Part shown: positions 21,001 to 27,000 of the stretch, one piece after another
Layout of the letters: the number at the start of each line of letters is the position of its first letter
How positions within the stretch are numbered: position 1 is the stretch's first letter
Source: Candidatus Iainarchaeum sp.
Lineage (GTDB): Archaea > Iainarchaeota > Iainarchaeia > Iainarchaeales > Iainarchaeaceae
Assembly (NCBI GenBank): GCA_043812975.1
Contig: JBDRLP010000027.1
Coordinates: forward strand, 1-64,000
Reading direction: 5' to 3'
Length of the DNA stretch: 64,000 nucleotides
Made by a program: the position numbers

Positions 21001-24000
21001 CTTGTATTCGGTCCAAAAAAACAGCCATTGCAGCGATTTCTGAATGAGGTTGGAGGGTCACAGACACATTATAATCAGACATTTCATAAACTTCTTTTTC
21101 GACTTTTTGAGAACCAATAATCACTAATAATTTATCCTTGCTTCTAAGTTCTTGCTCTGTTTCCTGAACTGGCAACCCATACATAGTCAAATGCACAGAA
21201 GTAAACCCTTTCTTTTTGTAATACGTTATTCTTTTTCTCCAGCTTTCAAAAAATTCAACATTAGCTCCTTTTCCCCATTGTTTGTTCATAGTATTAACAG
21301 TATTCTCAATACTTTCATCCTTTTCCCCAATAATTTCTACTTTATCTGCTCCAAAAGCTCTTGCCACTAAACAGCAATGGCTTGTAACTCTGTAATCTCT
21401 TACATGTCTATGCCCGTATCTCAAAACAACAATTTCCTTAACCATAAACAAATTTCGTCTAGAGCAGTTTTTATTCTTTATTTTACTTAAATTCACTGTG
21501 ATTTTATGCTGGACCTCAAATTTGTAAGGGAAAATTCAGAGTTGATAAAGAAAGACCTCGAAAAAAGAATGGATATTGAAAAAAAACCATGGATAAAGAG
21601 ACTTCTTGATTTGGATAAAAAATATCGTGAACAATTACAGGAAGCGGAAAACCTGAGAGCCAAAAGAAATGAAATAACCGCGGAAGTAAAGAAACTTCTT
21701 TCAGAAAAAAAAGACGCCAAAAAAAAGATTGCTGAAGCAAAAGATCTTCCAAACAAAATTAAGAAAATTGAAAAAAACACTGCTTTGTTGAAAGAAAAAA
21801 TTGATTATTATTTGATGCGTCTTCCTAATGTTTTACATGAATCAGTACCTTATGGGCGCGATGATTCTGAAAATAAAGTTGTGAAAGAAGTAGGTAAAAA
21901 AATTTCACGAAAAGAGCTTCTTCCTCATGGTGAGCTTTTAGAAAAACACGGGTGGGCTGATTTTGATCGTGCAGCAAAAGTTGCCGGTTCAGGATTTTAT
22001 TTTCTGAAAGGCCAGTTTGCGTTATTAGATTTTGCATTGCTGAGGTTTGCAATTGACAAACTTATGAAAAAAGGATATACTTTGATAGAGCCTCCGTTGA
22101 TGATGAATCGTGATGCGTATTCTGGAGTTACTGATTTAAACGACTTTGAGAATGTTATGTATAAAATTGACTCTGAGGATCTTTATTTAATTGCGACTTC
22201 CGAACATCCGCTGGCGGCAATGTTCAAAAATGAAATTCTTTCTGGTGAAAAACTTCCGATTAAGTTTGCAGGAGTATCTCCTTGTTTCAGAAAAGAAATC
22301 GGCAAGCACGGTATTGACACAAGGGGAATTTTCAGGGTTCATCAATTCAACAAAATTGAACAGTTTATTTTCTGTAAACCAGAGGATTCTTGGAAGTTCC
22401 ATGAGGAACTTTTAGAAAATGCGGAGGAAATTTTCAAAGAACTTGGTTTAGCCTATAGAGTTGTAAATATTTGCACCGGTGACATTGGAATTGTTGCTGC
22501 TAAAAAGTATGATATGGAAGTCTGGATGCCTAGAGAAGAAAAATACCGAGAAGTAGTTTCAAACAGCAATTGTACAACTTACCAGGCGGTTCGTTCTAAT
22601 GTAAAATTCAGGCACAAAGATGGAACCAAAGAATTTGTTCATACCTTGAACAGCACTGCTATTGCAACATCAAGAGCATTAAGGGCCTTACTTGAAACTT
22701 ATTATGATAATGGGGTAATAAAAATCCCAAAAGCTTTGCAACCGTATATGAATGGAGTAAAGGAAATTAAGCCTGAGAAATAGCTTTTCTCGCTGAAGAA
22801 ACCTTAAAAAACCTCTTCTTAGGCAATATTTAGTCAAATGGGCCCATAGCTCAGTCTGGTAGAGCAGCGGACTTTTAATCCGCGTGTCGAGGGTTCAAAT
22901 CCCTCTGGGCTCGTTCAGTACTTTTTTCTTTCTCTTTGAAAGAGAAAGAAAAACCTACACTAAAAAGAAAGAGAAAAAGGCGTGTATTTTGTCTGAAGAA
23001 AAAGAAGTTTCAGTATGGTCAGAAAAGGTAGCTGATGATGTTATTGTTAGACATAAAGAACCTTATGTTGTTGAGGGCATGTGGACGCCAAGCGGGTTCT
23101 TTCACATCGGAAACGCGAGGCCGGAAGTGTTTACTCCGTATGCTGTAAAAAGAGCTATTCAGGATAAAGGAAAAAAAGTCACACAGAATTTTATTTTAGA
23201 TGATTTTGATGCAGTGAGGAAAATTCCTGGAGGATTAGGAATCAAAAAAGAAGACGAAGATAAATATCTTGGTTTTCCAATTGCCACTGCTCCGTCTCCT
23301 TTGCCTGGTTTCAAAACATGGGCGGATGCATTTGTTTCTCAGTTGAAAAAGTATGCTCCTGAATTCGGTCTTGACTTGAATTTTATTTCTGCTTTCCAAA
23401 CTTACAAAGAAGGAAAATTTAATGAGTTGATAAAATTCAGTATTGAAAATTCTAAGGAAATTGTGAAGGTTTGGACAAAAGTTGCAGGTTCTGAAAAAGA
23501 AGAAGATTTTGTCCCTTTGCAAGTCCTTTGTGAAAAGTGTAAAAAAATTTATTATACAAAAGTTCTTGGTTTTGAAAACGATTTAGTTGAATATGAATGC
23601 GAATGTGGTCAGAAAGGAAAAGTTTCCCCGTATGATGGTAATGCAAAATTACATTGGAGAGTACATTGGGTTTGCCACTGGATTCTCCACAAAGTGGATT
23701 TTGAATCAGGGGGAAAGGATCACTTTTCTAAAGGCGGTTCTGTTGATGTCGGGCAGGCATTGATTAAGGAAGTTTTCAAAAAAGAACCCCCTGTGCAGGT
23801 GCCAACTGAGTTTGTTCAGTTAGCTGGAGCAAAAATGGCAGGTTCCATTGGAAATGTTATTGATCTTGAATCTTGGTTAAAAGTAGCGCCGCCAGAACTT
23901 TTCAGGTTCATGAATTTTTCTTATAAACCTTACACTGTAATTGAGTTCTCATTCAAAAATAACAGTTTTGTTCTTTTGAACGATCGATTTGAAAGAGCCG

Positions 24001-27000
24001 AAAGAATTTATTTTGGTTTCGAAAAAGCAGAAAACGAAAAAATGACTCAGAAATTAAAGAAGATTTATGAATTTTCAGTAATAGGCACTCCGTCAAAAAG
24101 ATTAGTGCAGCTTCCGTTCTCAACAAGTATTTTACTTTCACAGATTCTGGATTTTGAAAATAATTTTGATGAAAGTTTAGATAAAATAAAAGAAGTATCA
24201 AAAATTCCTGAAGATTTGACTAACGAAGAAAAGGAAAAAATAAAAGAAAAACTAAAAAGAACTAAACACTGGGTCGAGAATTACGCTGAGGAATCATTCA
24301 GATTGAGTTTTGTTGAAGAATACGATTCTGGATTATTAGGCAGATTAGATGAAAAAATTGTTTCTGTGCTTACTCAGATAAACAAAAATCTTCTAAGTGC
24401 AAAAACCCAGGAGGAGATTCAGCAATTAATTTTTGATTCTTCAAAGGAAAACAACATTTCTCCAAAAGATTCTTTTAGAGTTATTTATTTGGCTTTAATT
24501 GGCAAGGAAAAGGGGCCTAAAGTAGGTTCTCTTGTTCCAGTTTTCGGAAAAGAAAAAGTAATGAAAAGAATTGAAGAAGTAATTTCTCAGCCAAAACCAA
24601 AAACTGCGGTTAGAGAAAAAAAGGACTCTAGTTTGCCAGGGGCTGAAGAACTTTCTAAAGTTTTCAATTTTGAGGTTTCAGAAAAAGTAAAAGAAAATTT
24701 TCCAAACCTCCGACTAGGAATTTTAGTTCTGAAGAATATTGCTAATGCAAAGCAAAGTCCTGAAATTTCTAAGTTGCTCAGAAAAAAAGAATCCGAATTA
24801 AGAAAAGACATTGAAGGAAAAGAACTTTCTTCAGTTGAAAATCTGAAACTCTGGAGAGAAGCTTACTCAAGTTTTGGCGGAAAACCAAAAAAATACAAGC
24901 CTTCAGTTGAGGCACTTGTAAAAAGAGTAGTTAAAGGAGAAGAACTTCCAAGCATCAATCTTTTAGTTGACATTTACAATTACATTTCTATAAAATATTT
25001 ACTTCCTGCCGGAGGGGACGATTTGGATAAAATTGAGGGCAAAGTTTCTCTTGATTATGCAACCGGAAAAGAGAACTTTTTGATGATTGGGTCTAATGAA
25101 AACGATGCCCCGAAAGAAGGGGAGATTGTTTACAAAGATTCCAAAGAAGTTTTGTGCAGACGTTGGAATTGGAGAGAATGTGACAAAACCAAGTTAACTG
25201 AAGAAACCAAAAATGCAGTAATTTATATTGAAAGTCTCAGTTCAGCAGATGATTTGGATAAAGCACTTGCTGAACTTGCGGAACTTGTTGAAAAGTACTG
25301 TAATGCCAAAACAAGCAAGTTTGTGGTTTAATGGAAGTTTAATAATGGTTATTTAAGCGAAGTATTTGGTGTTTGTGGGCCCATAGCTCAGTCTGGTAGA
25401 GCAGCGGACTCTTAATCCGCGTGTCGAGGGTTCAAATCCCTCTGGGCTCGCATTAAATTTTTTCCAAATATCTTTTAATTTCCCATTTGGAAACTTGTTT
25501 TGCGTAATCCCGCCACTCGGTTTTCTTTGATTTGATGTAATGTGCGAAACAATGTTCTCCAAGAGTTTCTTTCAGAGCCGTGTCCTGTTCAAGGGCGATT
25601 ATTGCATCTCTCAAGTTTTCAGGCAGCGTCTGAATTTTATTATTGTTTAGTTTTTCACTATCCAAATCATAAAGACTTTCTTCAACAGGATTTGGAATTT
25701 CAAGTTTTCTTTTAATTCCGTCAAGTCCTGCTGTCAGCATTGCCGCAAATGCAAGATAAGGATTACAACTTGGATCGGGGCATCTTAATTCTGCACGAGT
25801 AGAATTTTCTCTTCCTTTTGAATATCTTGGTATTCGGATTAATGCTGATCTGTTAACTTGGCCCCAGCTAATGTAAACAGGGGCTTCATAACCAGGAACT
25901 AATCTTTTGTATGAGTTAACTGTAGGGGCCACAATTGCAGCAAGTCCTTTTGCGTGTTCCAATTGACCCGCAATAAAATGTTTAGCAGTATTACTCAACT
26001 TGTATTCATCTTCTGCATCAAAGAAAACATTCTTACTCCCTTTGAATAGACTCTGATGAACATGCATTCCAGAACCATTAATGCCGTAAATCGGTTTTGG
26101 CATAAAGCTCGCATACAAATTATGTTTTTGCGCAATTGCTTTTACTGTGTATTTGAAAGTATTGACTTTGTCTGCAGTTGTAAGTGCTTTTCCATATTTA
26201 AAATCAATTTCATGCTGGCCAAACGCAACTTCATGGTGAGAAGTTTCAACTTCTAAACCCATTTTTTCCAGAGAAAAAATTATATCTCTTCTCACGTCGC
26301 TTGCAAGATCACGCGGAGCAAAATCAAAGTAGCCTCCAACATCGTGTGGTACAGTTTGTACTTCTCCGTCTTTAGTTTGAAATAAAAAAAATTCCAGCTC
26401 AGGTCCAACAAAATACTCAAAGCCTTCTTCATTTGCTTTTGCAATTGCGTTTTTCAGGATGTTTCTCGGATCTCCCTCAAATGGTTTACCATCAGGCATA
26501 TAAACATCACATATTATTCGTGCTTCTCTGTGTCCGTTTTGGCTCCTCCAAGGAATTATTTCAAAAGTGGTTTCATCAGGTTTGAGGTACATATCACTTT
26601 CAAAGATTCTAGTGAATCCCTGTATACTGCTTCCATCAAACCACTGACCTTTTTTAAGGGATTCCTCCAGCTTATGCCCTGGTATTGTGACACTTTTTAT
26701 CTGGCCATCAATATCAGAAAACTGGAGTTCAATTAGTTTCACGTTTTCTTTTTTTATTGTTTCAAGAATATCTTTTGAGCCCATTATAATCAATTATTTT
26801 ATGCTTTAATTAAGCTTTTTACAAAAAGTTTTGACAATTGTTATAGAATATCCTTAAATAGTTATTTTTTGTACTATTATTTAACTAAATAGTTTGAGAA
26901 AGTAAACAATTGTTAGGTGGATTTATGGAGCCGGATAAAAAAGATATATTAATCCTCAGAGTATTGCAGAAAGATTCTCGTTTGTCTTTGAGAAAAATCG

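Follow-up and report, generated by a model that had tools for sequence, protein, structure and literature searches.

An open reading frame (ORF) on the forward strand at 22989..25331 of the window, the whole 64,000-nucleotide stretch of Candidatus Iainarchaeum sp. DNA that was analysed, encodes a class I lysyl-tRNA synthetase (LysRS) carrying a CtdA-family B3/4 deacylase module, as assigned by Pfam and NCBIfam. The ORF starts with TTG, runs for 780 aa without an internal stop and ends, stop codon included, at 25331. A longer version would start from a GTG at 22884, which falls within the tRNA-Lys(UUU) gene. Two tRNA-Lys genes on the same strand flank the synthetase gene, as the genome-wide survey's note had stated, and are the only two that ARAGORN predicts in the genome: tRNA-Lys(UUU) at 22839..22914 (Rfam tRNA, 71.2 bits) lies 74 nt 5' of the LysRS start, and tRNA-Lys(CUU) at 25377..25451 (Rfam, 69.7 bits) lies 45 nt 3' of the stop. 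The upstream flank is kept in relatives L007, L008 and L009, and the downstream tRNA-Lys(CUU) also in L007 and L008.

The LysRS core and its linker

Residues 9–363 (23013..24077, +) form the class I LysRS catalytic domain (Pfam PF01921, tRNA-synt_1f, 4.5e-89) and residues 453–532 (24345..24584, +) the anticodon-binding domain (PF19269, Anticodon_2, 4.9e-9). Over residues 10–530 the protein scores 392.1 bits against NCBIfam lysS_arch (TIGR00467; cut-off 147.55). HIGN (H39-I40-G41-N42) and K282-M283..S286.G288-N289, which we take to be the HIGH-type (H39–N42) and KMSKS-type (K282-M283..S286) motifs, are invariant among the 17 relatives aligned, as are the four Zn cysteines C181, C184, C204 and C206. 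The core is nevertheless diverged, with 36–44% identity to relatives and 392 bits against TIGR00467 versus 500–545 for other C-terminal class I LysRS fusions. Its catalytic and anticodon-binding domains, motifs intact, are those of canonical class I LysRS (TIGR00467; P. horikoshii 1IRX per AARS Online), from which the fused enzyme differs by ~250 additional C-terminal residues. Judged by its sequence, this is an intact class I LysRS predicted to lysylate tRNA-Lys as a housekeeping enzyme. No other LysRS was detected in the genome, which is 94% complete: the fused gene gives the only strong class I match, and no class II LysRS turned up, the sole D/K/N-type gene being an AspRS split over two contigs. 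In all five genomes checked, the fused enzyme is the sole strong match to class I LysRS.

A Lys/Pro-rich linker with a semi-conserved LPG (residues 533–558; 24585..24662, +), delimited by AlphaFold2 (AF2) and alignment, joins core and module; it is a low-confidence stretch of ~25 residues whose sequence varies among relatives. In the full-length AF2 model pLDDT falls below 50 at 537–544 and is ~60 over 531–550, and the arrangement of LysRS and module is not fixed because pTM is 0.57.

A CtdA-family deacylase module

Residues 559–780 (24663..25328, +) were assigned to the CtdA family of B3/4 aminoacyl-tRNA deacylases by profile, PDB search and AF2/Foldseek. Pfam B3_4 matches residues 622–753 (4.8e-29), and a PDB sequence search retrieves CtdA of P. 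canavaninivorans (9f7e; 1.1e-27, 100 bits) and S. enterica (9mkl; 6.5e-26) (PMC10018355, PMC12268091, PMC12449066). When 120 free-standing homologues were combined into a profile, its positions 2–223 matched residues 560–779 of the fused protein, and the module is therefore full length. With an AF2 model of the module alone (pLDDT 90.2, pTM 0.88), Foldseek ranks 9mkl and 9f7e best (TM 0.83–0.87), followed by PheRS beta (TMq 0.55–0.62). Pfam, NCBIfam, PDB search, profile and Foldseek agree with the earlier description of a class I LysRS (residues 1–532) followed by a full-length CtdA homologue.

Key residues of the module are Y663, N664, S667, G675, G676, D677, Y715, C723, RRWNWR at 724–729, E730, V744, Y746 and E748. 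In CtdA numbering, Y104, N105, G116, E191 and C166, the last being the residue that CtdA requires for its specificity, are identical; the pocket changes are E118D (D677, conservative), W158Y, Q173E, W187V and I189Y. The alignment bears out the claim that the catalytic Asn, Gly and Cys of CtdA are kept, as N664, G675/G676 and C723. CtdA is inactivated by Y104F, N105D, E118Q and E191V (PMC12268091) and by N105A and G116H/W (PMC12449066); the residues that CtdA needs by this mutagenesis are retained in the module, E118 as Asp. W158Y and Q173E are common to the module and Firmicute-type CtdA, and the C. perfringens enzyme, which is of this type and has Glu at 173, is active on canavanyl-tRNA-Arg according to the CtdA literature. 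Since the module is nearer to 9f7e (100 bits) than a Firmicute-type CtdA is (86 bits), its sequence distance is no argument against canavanyl-tRNA deacylase activity. Apparently, then, the module is a complete and catalytically competent CtdA-type domain.

Likeness to CtdA extends over the full length, the fold, the Y-N, S, GG and C-RRWNWR positions, the distal Glu and a positive rim. CtdA, however, is a free-standing, single-domain enzyme acting in trans, whereas the module is fused in frame to LysRS and shares ~31–32% identity with a close CtdA orthologue (Pantoea). The B3/B4 domain of PheRS beta, of the same fold superfamily (Pfam B3_4), is a precedent for a B3/4 fold serving as a cis post-transfer editing domain within a synthetase. 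It differs in lying inside a subunit made up of several domains, where the LysRS module is a terminal tethered appendage on another partner; according to PMC12449066, the Asn is common to both and most pocket residues are not.

Equivalents of the positive entrance residues K73, R76, K86, R87, R90, R167, R168, R172 and R178 remain K or R. These would also suit a module that had lost hydrolase function and served as an extra tRNA/CCA-end-binding appendage, helping LysRS to bind tRNA-Lys more tightly in the manner of the C-terminal tRNA-binding domains of other synthetases; the unusually diverged LysRS core might need such help. MetRS usually has a tRNA-binding C-terminal domain, and the MetRS-type B3/4 module described below occupies that position. 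We consider this explanation distinctly improbable, since 54–57 of 58 LysRS-fused modules keep the deep-pocket and ester-proximal residues, which do not contribute to binding of the backbone (Y104 in 56, N105 in 57, S108 in 56, G116 in 57, C166 in 54, E191 in 57, with position 118 acidic in 55; the set includes the 780-aa LysRS studied here and excludes P0046). Three MetRS fusions, moreover, bear B3/4 in addition to their usual tRNA_bind domain, and the pocket base varies with the partner amino acid, which is unexpected of a domain that merely binds RNA.

Partner synthetases and pocket composition

Searched against long proteins, the module gave 63 other matches, which NCBIfam typed as 25 class I LysRS, 33 class II LysRS, 2 ArgRS and 3 others (1 MetRS, 1 ValRS fragment, 1 without an aaRS), reproducing the earlier counts. 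Thus 58 of the 63 closest long relatives are LysRS, with the module at either terminus, and the recurrence on two unrelated LysRS classes is upheld by this typing. Among short proteins there were 1539 matches, in line with the >1500 free-standing homologues given before, and CRRWNWRECDK occurs in 99 among 120 listed. The long-protein survey is word-indexed and biased. In the best 150 cluster representatives of an exhaustive HMMER search, the 35 long proteins include 22 ArgRS, 7 LysRS and 3 TyrRS-type fusions. Across the family the module is joined to ArgRS more often than to any other partner, and the earlier statement that the module is only rarely joined to ArgRS was an artefact of word indexing.

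In a sample of 150 further genomes from the phylum, the module sits in a 730–1044-aa frame in 17 and in a 221–312-aa frame in 7, correcting an earlier count of 770–1044-aa frames in 6 of 60 genomes; fused and free-standing forms co-occur in none of the 24 module-carrying genomes of this sample. By record titles, carriers are uncultured, metagenome-assembled members of DPANN, CPR and Aminicenantes-like lineages, none legume-associated. The LysRS of one relative, P0007, also bears an AlaX domain.

Phylogenetically, the module falls in a clade (99*) of 15 class I C-terminal LysRS fusions and one class II LysRS fusion, P0009. Starred branches force at least three (class I) and at least seven (class II) LysRS label changes, and the main ArgRS-fused clade (support 98) is separate from the LysRS clades, in a group that holds all five named CtdA references. 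Support along the tree backbones is weak (38–91). Fusion arose repeatedly and independently, in lineages tied to the partner synthetase.

The pocket base tracks the partner as well. Modules joined to LysRS or ArgRS have acids there, and the class I LysRS-fused lineage has its own signature (D677, Y746; D118 in 24/26, Y189 in 25/26), with E118D (also in its free relatives) and I189Y seen in this lineage only. Both acids are lost in a MetRS-fused lineage, present in this genome too, where the base has H in 33/33 and Q in 32/33 and Y, N, G and C are retained; all 32 other long relatives of this MetRS-type module are MetRS, three also keeping the tRNA_bind domain. TyrRS-type fusions likewise deviate at pocket-base sites. 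At 18 tabulated sites, the pockets of class II LysRS-fused and ArgRS-fused modules are indistinguishable, so they bear no sequence mark of a switch from an Arg-analogue substrate. With W158Y and Q173E also present in Firmicute-type CtdA, the lysine-analogue substrate proposed in the survey's note finds no specific support.

Proposed proofreading of tRNA-Lys and competing explanations

The best explanation, which we hold with about even confidence, is that the module is a cis post-transfer editing domain that frees tRNA-Lys of a non-cognate amino acid with a positive charge. A class I LysRS would have acquired a CtdA-family deacylase on a flexible C-terminal tether, and the module would sample the 3' end of mischarged tRNA-Lys after aminoacylation. 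In its deep pocket two acids (D677, E748) would lie at the base, while C723 and the neighbouring Tyr and Asn (Y663, N664) would face the ester bond; the non-cognate cationic aminoacyl group would be hydrolysed and Lys-tRNA-Lys spared. We infer hydrolytic activity, cis action on tRNA-Lys and the kind of substrate, and partner-specific lineages together with pocket-partner covariation suggest that the target is the synthetase's own mischarged product. Candidate substrates are arginine, canavanine or another guanidino analogue, and a lysine analogue; the pocket suits arginine or a canavanine-like residue just as well as a lysine analogue. In E. coli, LysRS makes Arg-tRNA-Lys and is unable to remove it, and Thr- and Met-tRNA-Lys likewise go uncorrected (PMC5370406).

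As in a cis-editing domain, module and synthetase form one polypeptide, and the residues of the module's hydrolytic site are conserved across orthologues. Cis editing is further favoured by the catalytic set kept in the 58 LysRS-fused modules, by partner-specific lineages whose pocket base follows the partner, and by the lack of a second strong class I LysRS match in the genomes checked, with fused and free forms never together in the phylum sample. Against it count the ArgRS-like pocket of the class II LysRS fusions, the closeness of the module to CtdA 9f7e, the weak tree backbones and the low full-length pTM. The AlaX domain of P0007 also speaks against it, fitting LysRS as a scaffold for trans-editing factors.

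Genomic context gives no canavanine signature, which, with the uncultured DPANN, CPR and Aminicenantes-like carriers, was likewise counted for cis editing. No guanidine riboswitch was detected in positions 20000–28000 around the fused LysRS or at 20 bacterial free-standing loci, and canavanine-utilisation genes were not found, neighbours of the examined module loci being unrelated; in this the module, whose substrate is putative, differs from CtdA. Canavanine is of legume origin (PMC12449066). At 68 free-standing loci LysRS adjoins the module in only two, a point against cis editing, ArgRS in one and AlaRS in one.

The main rival, which we regard as unlikely, is that the module is an ordinary CtdA, a trans deacylase for canavanyl-tRNA-Arg or another Arg analogue on tRNA-Arg, whose tether to LysRS serves to co-express or co-localise the two and which does not act on tRNA-Lys. 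CtdA acts in trans without its synthetase, ArgRS (PMC10018355), so tRNA-Arg could still be the target of a LysRS-tethered module, a point that also counts against cis editing. Retention of the CtdA residue set, C166 included and E118 as Asp, the match to ArgRS-fused pockets and the family-wide prevalence of ArgRS fit this rival, as does the AlaX domain riding on LysRS. This genome's ArgRS, moreover, is unfused and no free-standing CtdA was found in the genome, so the module would be its sole CtdA-type activity. A random tether, however, would not repeatedly choose two unrelated LysRS classes at either terminus, nor yield LysRS-specific clades apart from the ArgRS/CtdA group; the pocket changes peculiar to the class I LysRS lineage and the missing riboswitch, canavanine-gene and legume associations also tell against it. 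A separate PheRS-beta-like B3_4 match lies in a 548-aa ORF of this genome.

At 13 of the 68 free-standing loci the module gene lies directly 3' of a PLP group II decarboxylase gene. These share one synteny, with the decarboxylase gene 5' of the module on the same strand and, on contigs that extend far enough, TrmO or a GDSL lipase 3' of it, so they are probably close kin and not independent. They hint at a link to amino-acid metabolites and, with the abundance of close free-standing relatives, would suit a deacylase with another target tied to lysine metabolism or broad quality control, such as a wider aminoacyl-tRNA range in trans or regulated hydrolysis of Lys-tRNA-Lys. To this we assign little probability, given the kinship of the 13 loci, the futility of hydrolysing a cognate product and the lack of any further pointer.

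Post-transfer correction of LysRS errors by an added module is itself an established idea, since ProXp-ST1/ST2 (YeaK-type) remove wrong aminoacyl groups from the tRNA products of several synthetases, LysRS included (PMC7373986). Those proteins have the INS/YbaK fold, are free-standing and are Ser/Thr-specific, in contrast to a fused B3/4 module with an acidic pocket base. AlaX and ThrRS-ed, of other folds and on other partners, also occur both free and on more than one synthetase (AARS Online). In agreement with the survey's note, the literature searched contained no paper describing a post-transfer editing domain of LysRS. The terms LysRS, lysyl, fusion and fused are absent from the main text of the three CtdA papers (PMC10018355, PMC12268091, PMC12449066), although one 'Lysyl-tRNA synthetase, class 2' entry stands, uncommented, in a supplement table of the last; a 2020 review gives LysRS pre-transfer editing only (PMC7373986), and the AARS Online domain table lists no LysRS editing domain.

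A broader proposal, to which we give somewhat less than even credence, is that CtdA-type B3/4 is a general plug-in proofreading domain, captured many times by LysRS of both classes, ArgRS, MetRS and TyrRS, mostly in reduced-genome DPANN and CPR, with its pocket base retuned to the partner amino acid, and that LysRS truly cis-edits a cationic residue such as Arg on tRNA-Lys. The four synthetases are considered to have no post-transfer editing. A dedicated hydrolytic domain on a natural LysRS would place this enzyme among the post-transfer-editing synthetases and, if true, the CtdA family would gain a second substrate class. If the ArgRS, MetRS and TyrRS fusions act alike, one small fold would be a modular fidelity device in organisms that rely on others for amino acids, and which mischarging errors matter in minimal cells would become directly testable.

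A class I lysyl-tRNA synthetase with a CtdA-type module

The reading frame at 22989-25331 on the forward strand opens with TTG and runs through 780 codons without a stop. An alternative GTG start at 22884, which gives a longer ORF, falls within the tRNA-Lys(UUU) gene (22839-22914), and alignment with 16 relatives favours the short form. Pfam assigned tRNA-synt_1f to residues 9-363 (4.5e-89), Anticodon_2 to residues 453-532 and B3_4 to residues 622-753 (101.6 bits, cut-off 29.3), and the protein scored 392 bits against the NCBIfam model lysS_arch (cut-off 147.6). A profile built from 120 free-standing homologues aligned residues 560-779 to its positions 2-223, so that the C-terminal part represents a complete, protein-sized module. 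Its PDB sequence matches were to the canavanyl-tRNA-Arg deacylase CtdA (9f7e, 1.1e-27; 9mkl, 6.5e-26), and Foldseek comparison of its AlphaFold2 model (pLDDT 90.2) gave TM-scores of 0.83-0.87 against these two structures and a TMq of no more than 0.62 against PheRS beta. The observation in the genome-wide survey's note, that a class I LysRS is joined here to a full-length CtdA-type domain, is therefore borne out by ORF, Pfam, NCBIfam, profile, PDB and fold. An assembly chimera or read-through as the source of the fusion was ruled out, because 17 further genomes of the phylum sample have the same frame, which also turns up on many independent contigs. The full-length model (pLDDT 79.3) has a pTM of 0.57, which makes its inter-domain geometry unreliable; pLDDT below 50 at residues 537-544 would fit a flexible tether between core and module, with an undefined domain arrangement.

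The LysRS motifs HIGN and KM..S.GN and the four zinc cysteines are invariant across 17 relatives. The core itself (22989-24584) is unusually diverged: it shares 36-44% identity with relatives, has a score of 392 bits compared with 500-545, and reads KMAGSIGN at the position of KMSSSKGN in other relatives and KMSGSKGN in the related protein P0006. The module, unlike the core, is 50-70% identical to its relatives.

The genome comprises 1.24 Mb in 68 contigs and is 94.5% complete. This gene is its sole strong class I LysRS match, and a bacterial-type AspRS, divided between two contig ends, is its one class II enzyme of D/K/N type. The ArgRS is unfused (566-aa frame), and no free-standing CtdA-like gene was found in the 94.5% complete assembly. 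ARAGORN predicted 22 tRNAs; both tRNA-Lys genes flank the LysRS-module gene and there is no further tRNA-Lys among them. Both flanking tRNAs are kept in two related loci (L007 and L008) and one in a third (L009). A perfect 14-bp A/T/C-rich hairpin lies at 22923-22952, between tRNA-Lys(UUU) and the LysRS start, and its folding was no better than that of shuffles (z -1.3). Scanning for sigma-70 promoters and terminators was uninformative, the host being an archaeon.

Fusion partners across the family

A word-indexed search with the module returned 63 other long proteins, whose partners were typed by NCBIfam: class I LysRS in 25 (module C-terminal in 14, N-terminal in 11), class II LysRS in 33 (C-terminal in 20, N-terminal in 13), ArgRS in two (module N-terminal), and MetRS, a ValRS fragment and a protein without synthetase, one each. 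These counts reproduce those of the earlier note (25 class I LysRS, 33 class II LysRS, two ArgRS, three other), but its statement that the module is rarely joined to ArgRS did not stand. When 1.84 billion cluster representatives were searched exhaustively with HMMER, 3527 matched at E ≤ 1e-3, 284 of them at E ≤ 1e-30. Partners were typed for the 35 proteins of at least 390 aa among the best 150 representatives, which also include four proteins of 310-332 aa. ArgRS with an N-terminal module made up 22 of these 35, making ArgRS the commonest family-wide partner as judged from the long proteins among the best 150 representatives. LysRS accounted for seven (two class I and five class II-type; of the latter, one is fragmentary and Pfam alone supplied the type of three), and the remainder carried a TyrRS/TrpRS domain (three), an amidase, a GNAT domain or no other domain (one each). 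The word-indexed survey is biased, and the partner statistics drawn from it need correction. The ArgRS fusions fall among proteins P0220-P0343; one of them, P0251, is named arginine--tRNA ligase and comes from a Candidatus Shapirobacteria bacterium MAG.

Free-standing forms are also abundant: the short-protein search gave 1539 matches, and the 120 listed are 46-54% identical, with CRRWNWRECDK in 99. Across 150 other genomes of the phylum, a close module occurred within a 730-1044-aa frame in 17 and a 221-312-aa frame in seven, and no genome of this sample held fused and free forms together.

Several architectures depart from the simple fusion. P0007 (1010 aa) is a triple fusion of an N-terminal AlaXM-type editing domain, class I LysRS and the CtdA-like module, probably also present in a 1044-aa frame of another genome (G008:C28). 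P0339, P0345 and P0349 carry the module on TyrRS/TrpRS-type synthetases, and P0345 bears a YbaK-type tRNA_edit domain in addition, which puts two distinct editing folds on a single synthetase. In P0046, a class II LysRS fusion of 733 aa, the module order is permuted (profile positions 95-231, then 2-90), which might be what is left of a tandem or an artefact of assembly; this protein was omitted from trees and counts.

Lineages and neighbourhoods of the relatives

In a quick IQ-TREE of 115 rows, including a random pick of 45 of the 120 free-standing proteins and omitting P0046, the window module fell within a starred clade (support 99) of 15 class I C-terminal fusions and P0009, a class II LysRS of the same order (G120; TIGR00499, 557 bits). 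Forcing the class I rows together without P0009 cost 20.9 log-likelihood units in an AU test of a 37-row subset (p-AU 0.033), with subset and group picked after the tree was seen, and this constitutes weak evidence against class I monophyly without P0009. A second tree, a 256-row FastTree with cluster representatives, was built after removal of four long-branch rows and of envelopes shorter than 170 aa. The CtdA references were named plasmid-borne homologues from Pantoea, Sinorhizobium, Acetoanaerobium, Enterococcus, Lactococcus and Ralstonia, the Pantoea protein being a close CtdA orthologue (327 bits to 9f7e). In this tree, 25 of the 26 class I LysRS modules lie in a 29-row group (support 90) that adjoins the free-standing RECDK clade; class II LysRS modules form a 32-row clade (support 99; 26 fused, six free), and ArgRS modules a 20-row clade (support 98; 15 fused). 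The ArgRS clade belongs to a larger group of 56 rows (support 82), which also takes in every one of the five named CtdA references retained: Pantoea, Sinorhizobium, Acetoanaerobium, Enterococcus and Lactococcus. Backbone support is weak (38-91), and starred branches force a minimum of three label changes for class I LysRS, seven for class II LysRS and nine for ArgRS.

Of at least 576 relatives, the best 80 species-level loci (12 fused, 68 free-standing) all come from uncultured lineages, among them DPANN archaea, CPR bacteria, Aminicenantes, Acidobacteriota and Parachlamydiales. Within the free-standing set of 68, class I LysRS adjoins the module in two (L036 and L051), ArgRS in one (L041) and AlaRS in one (L044), and their neighbourhoods gave no clear lysine or arginine link. 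In L036, from a Chloroflexi MAG, LysRS and module are overlapping same-strand ORFs (2392-3987 and 3938-4696), either a split or a frameshifted fusion; in the archaeal L051 they are adjacent and convergent (4001-4792 and 4809-6500). In 13 of the same 68 loci (L014, L018, L024, L027, L030, L037, L043, L047, L060, L067, L071, L072 and L084), which probably share ancestry, the gene immediately upstream encodes a PLP group II decarboxylase in the same orientation. All NCBIfam scores of this decarboxylase are far under the cut-offs, the best, sub-threshold, being diaminobutyrate decarboxylase, and TrmO is the downstream neighbour in four of the 13 (L047, L060, L072 and L084). No guanidine riboswitch was found in 20 bacterial free-standing loci or at 20000-28000 of the window. 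In a Gracilibacteria MAG, a free-standing module is closely followed by a DUF2000 gene (L023:4736-5143). On the mobilisable Lactococcus cremoris plasmid pLC71B (L088, 481-3364), genes for MarR, a GNAT acetyltransferase, a B3/4 protein and an MFS transporter form what looks like a portable canavanine-type detoxification cassette.

Pocket residues and predicted function

Pocket positions follow the P. canavaninivorans numbering in PMC12268091, transferred to the window module through a HMMER alignment with CtdA. The module retains Y104, N105, S108, G116, G117, C166, RRWNWR and E191, with the substitutions E118D, W158Y, Q173E, W187V and I189Y. Across 58 LysRS-fused modules, Y104 is kept in 56, N105 in 57, S108 in 56, G116 in 57, C166 in 54 and E191 in 57, and position 118 is acidic in 55. 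W158Y and Q173E are not diagnostic, because Firmicute-type CtdA references also carry both and PMC12449066 and PMC10018355 report Glu at position 173 in the active C. perfringens enzyme. In the set enlarged by the cluster representatives, ArgRS-fused (n=24) and class II LysRS-fused (n=35) modules share one signature (E118, Y158, C166, E173, V/I189, E191); of the 26 modules fused to class I LysRS, 24 carry D118 and 25 carry Y189.

The same genome encodes a second fusion, a 709-aa MetRS (NF008900, 609 bits) with a C-terminal B3/4 module at G000:C41:13567-15696 on the forward strand (L093:268-2397). This module is 30% identical to that of LysRS, matches 9f7e at 9.6e-10 and belongs to a distinct lineage; its other long relatives carry a MetRS domain in 32 of 32 cases, three of them with tRNA_bind as well, and a similar weak match occurs within a 479-818-aa frame in 22 other genomes of the phylum sample. 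The MetRS-fused lineage retains Y, N and G in 33/33 and C in 32/33, with H at position 118 in 33/33 and Q at 191 in 32/33, so that the pocket base is His/Gln in the MetRS module and Asp/Glu in the LysRS module. Three TyrRS-type fusions also have differing residues at pocket sites. The charge of the pocket base thus tracks the amino acid of the partner.

The conserved hydrolytic set, the partner-specific clades and this pocket-partner covariation, together with a sole LysRS and mutually exclusive fused and free forms, favour a true editing domain serving its own synthetase; that it acts in cis on mischarged tRNA-Lys we hold at about even odds. The main rival, to which we give a distinctly smaller chance, is a tethered but still trans-acting CtdA working on tRNA-Arg. 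It would agree with the pocket shared with ArgRS-fused modules, with the independence of CtdA from ArgRS and with the attachment of another trans-editing domain to LysRS (AlaX in P0007). That the module only binds, given its conserved hydrolytic set, appears improbable, and other roles are similarly hard to credit. For cis editing of tRNA-Lys, the acidic residues at the base of the pocket suggest that the substrate is cationic; candidates would be Arg-tRNA-Lys, which E. coli LysRS makes and leaves uncorrected according to PMC5370406, and, equally open, canavanine-like residues or lysine analogues, the latter proposed in the survey's note.

No description of LysRS or ArgRS fused to a CtdA or B3/4 module was found in the literature searched, from whose scope subscription journals were excluded, and 'fusion' and 'fused' are absent from the main text of PMC10018355, PMC12268091 and PMC12449066. 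Among the CtdA hits in Table S2 of the last, one 'Lysyl-tRNA synthetase, class 2' (A0A1G8ED50, Alteribacillus persepolensis) is listed there without comment. The LysRS-CtdA-module architecture is real and conserved, and apparently undescribed. Fused N-terminally to ArgRS, a CtdA-like module would provide a natural means of editing canavanine in cis, and for the LysRS-fused module the predicted editing function is plausible: it would serve its own synthetase by clearing mischarged tRNA-Lys in cis.
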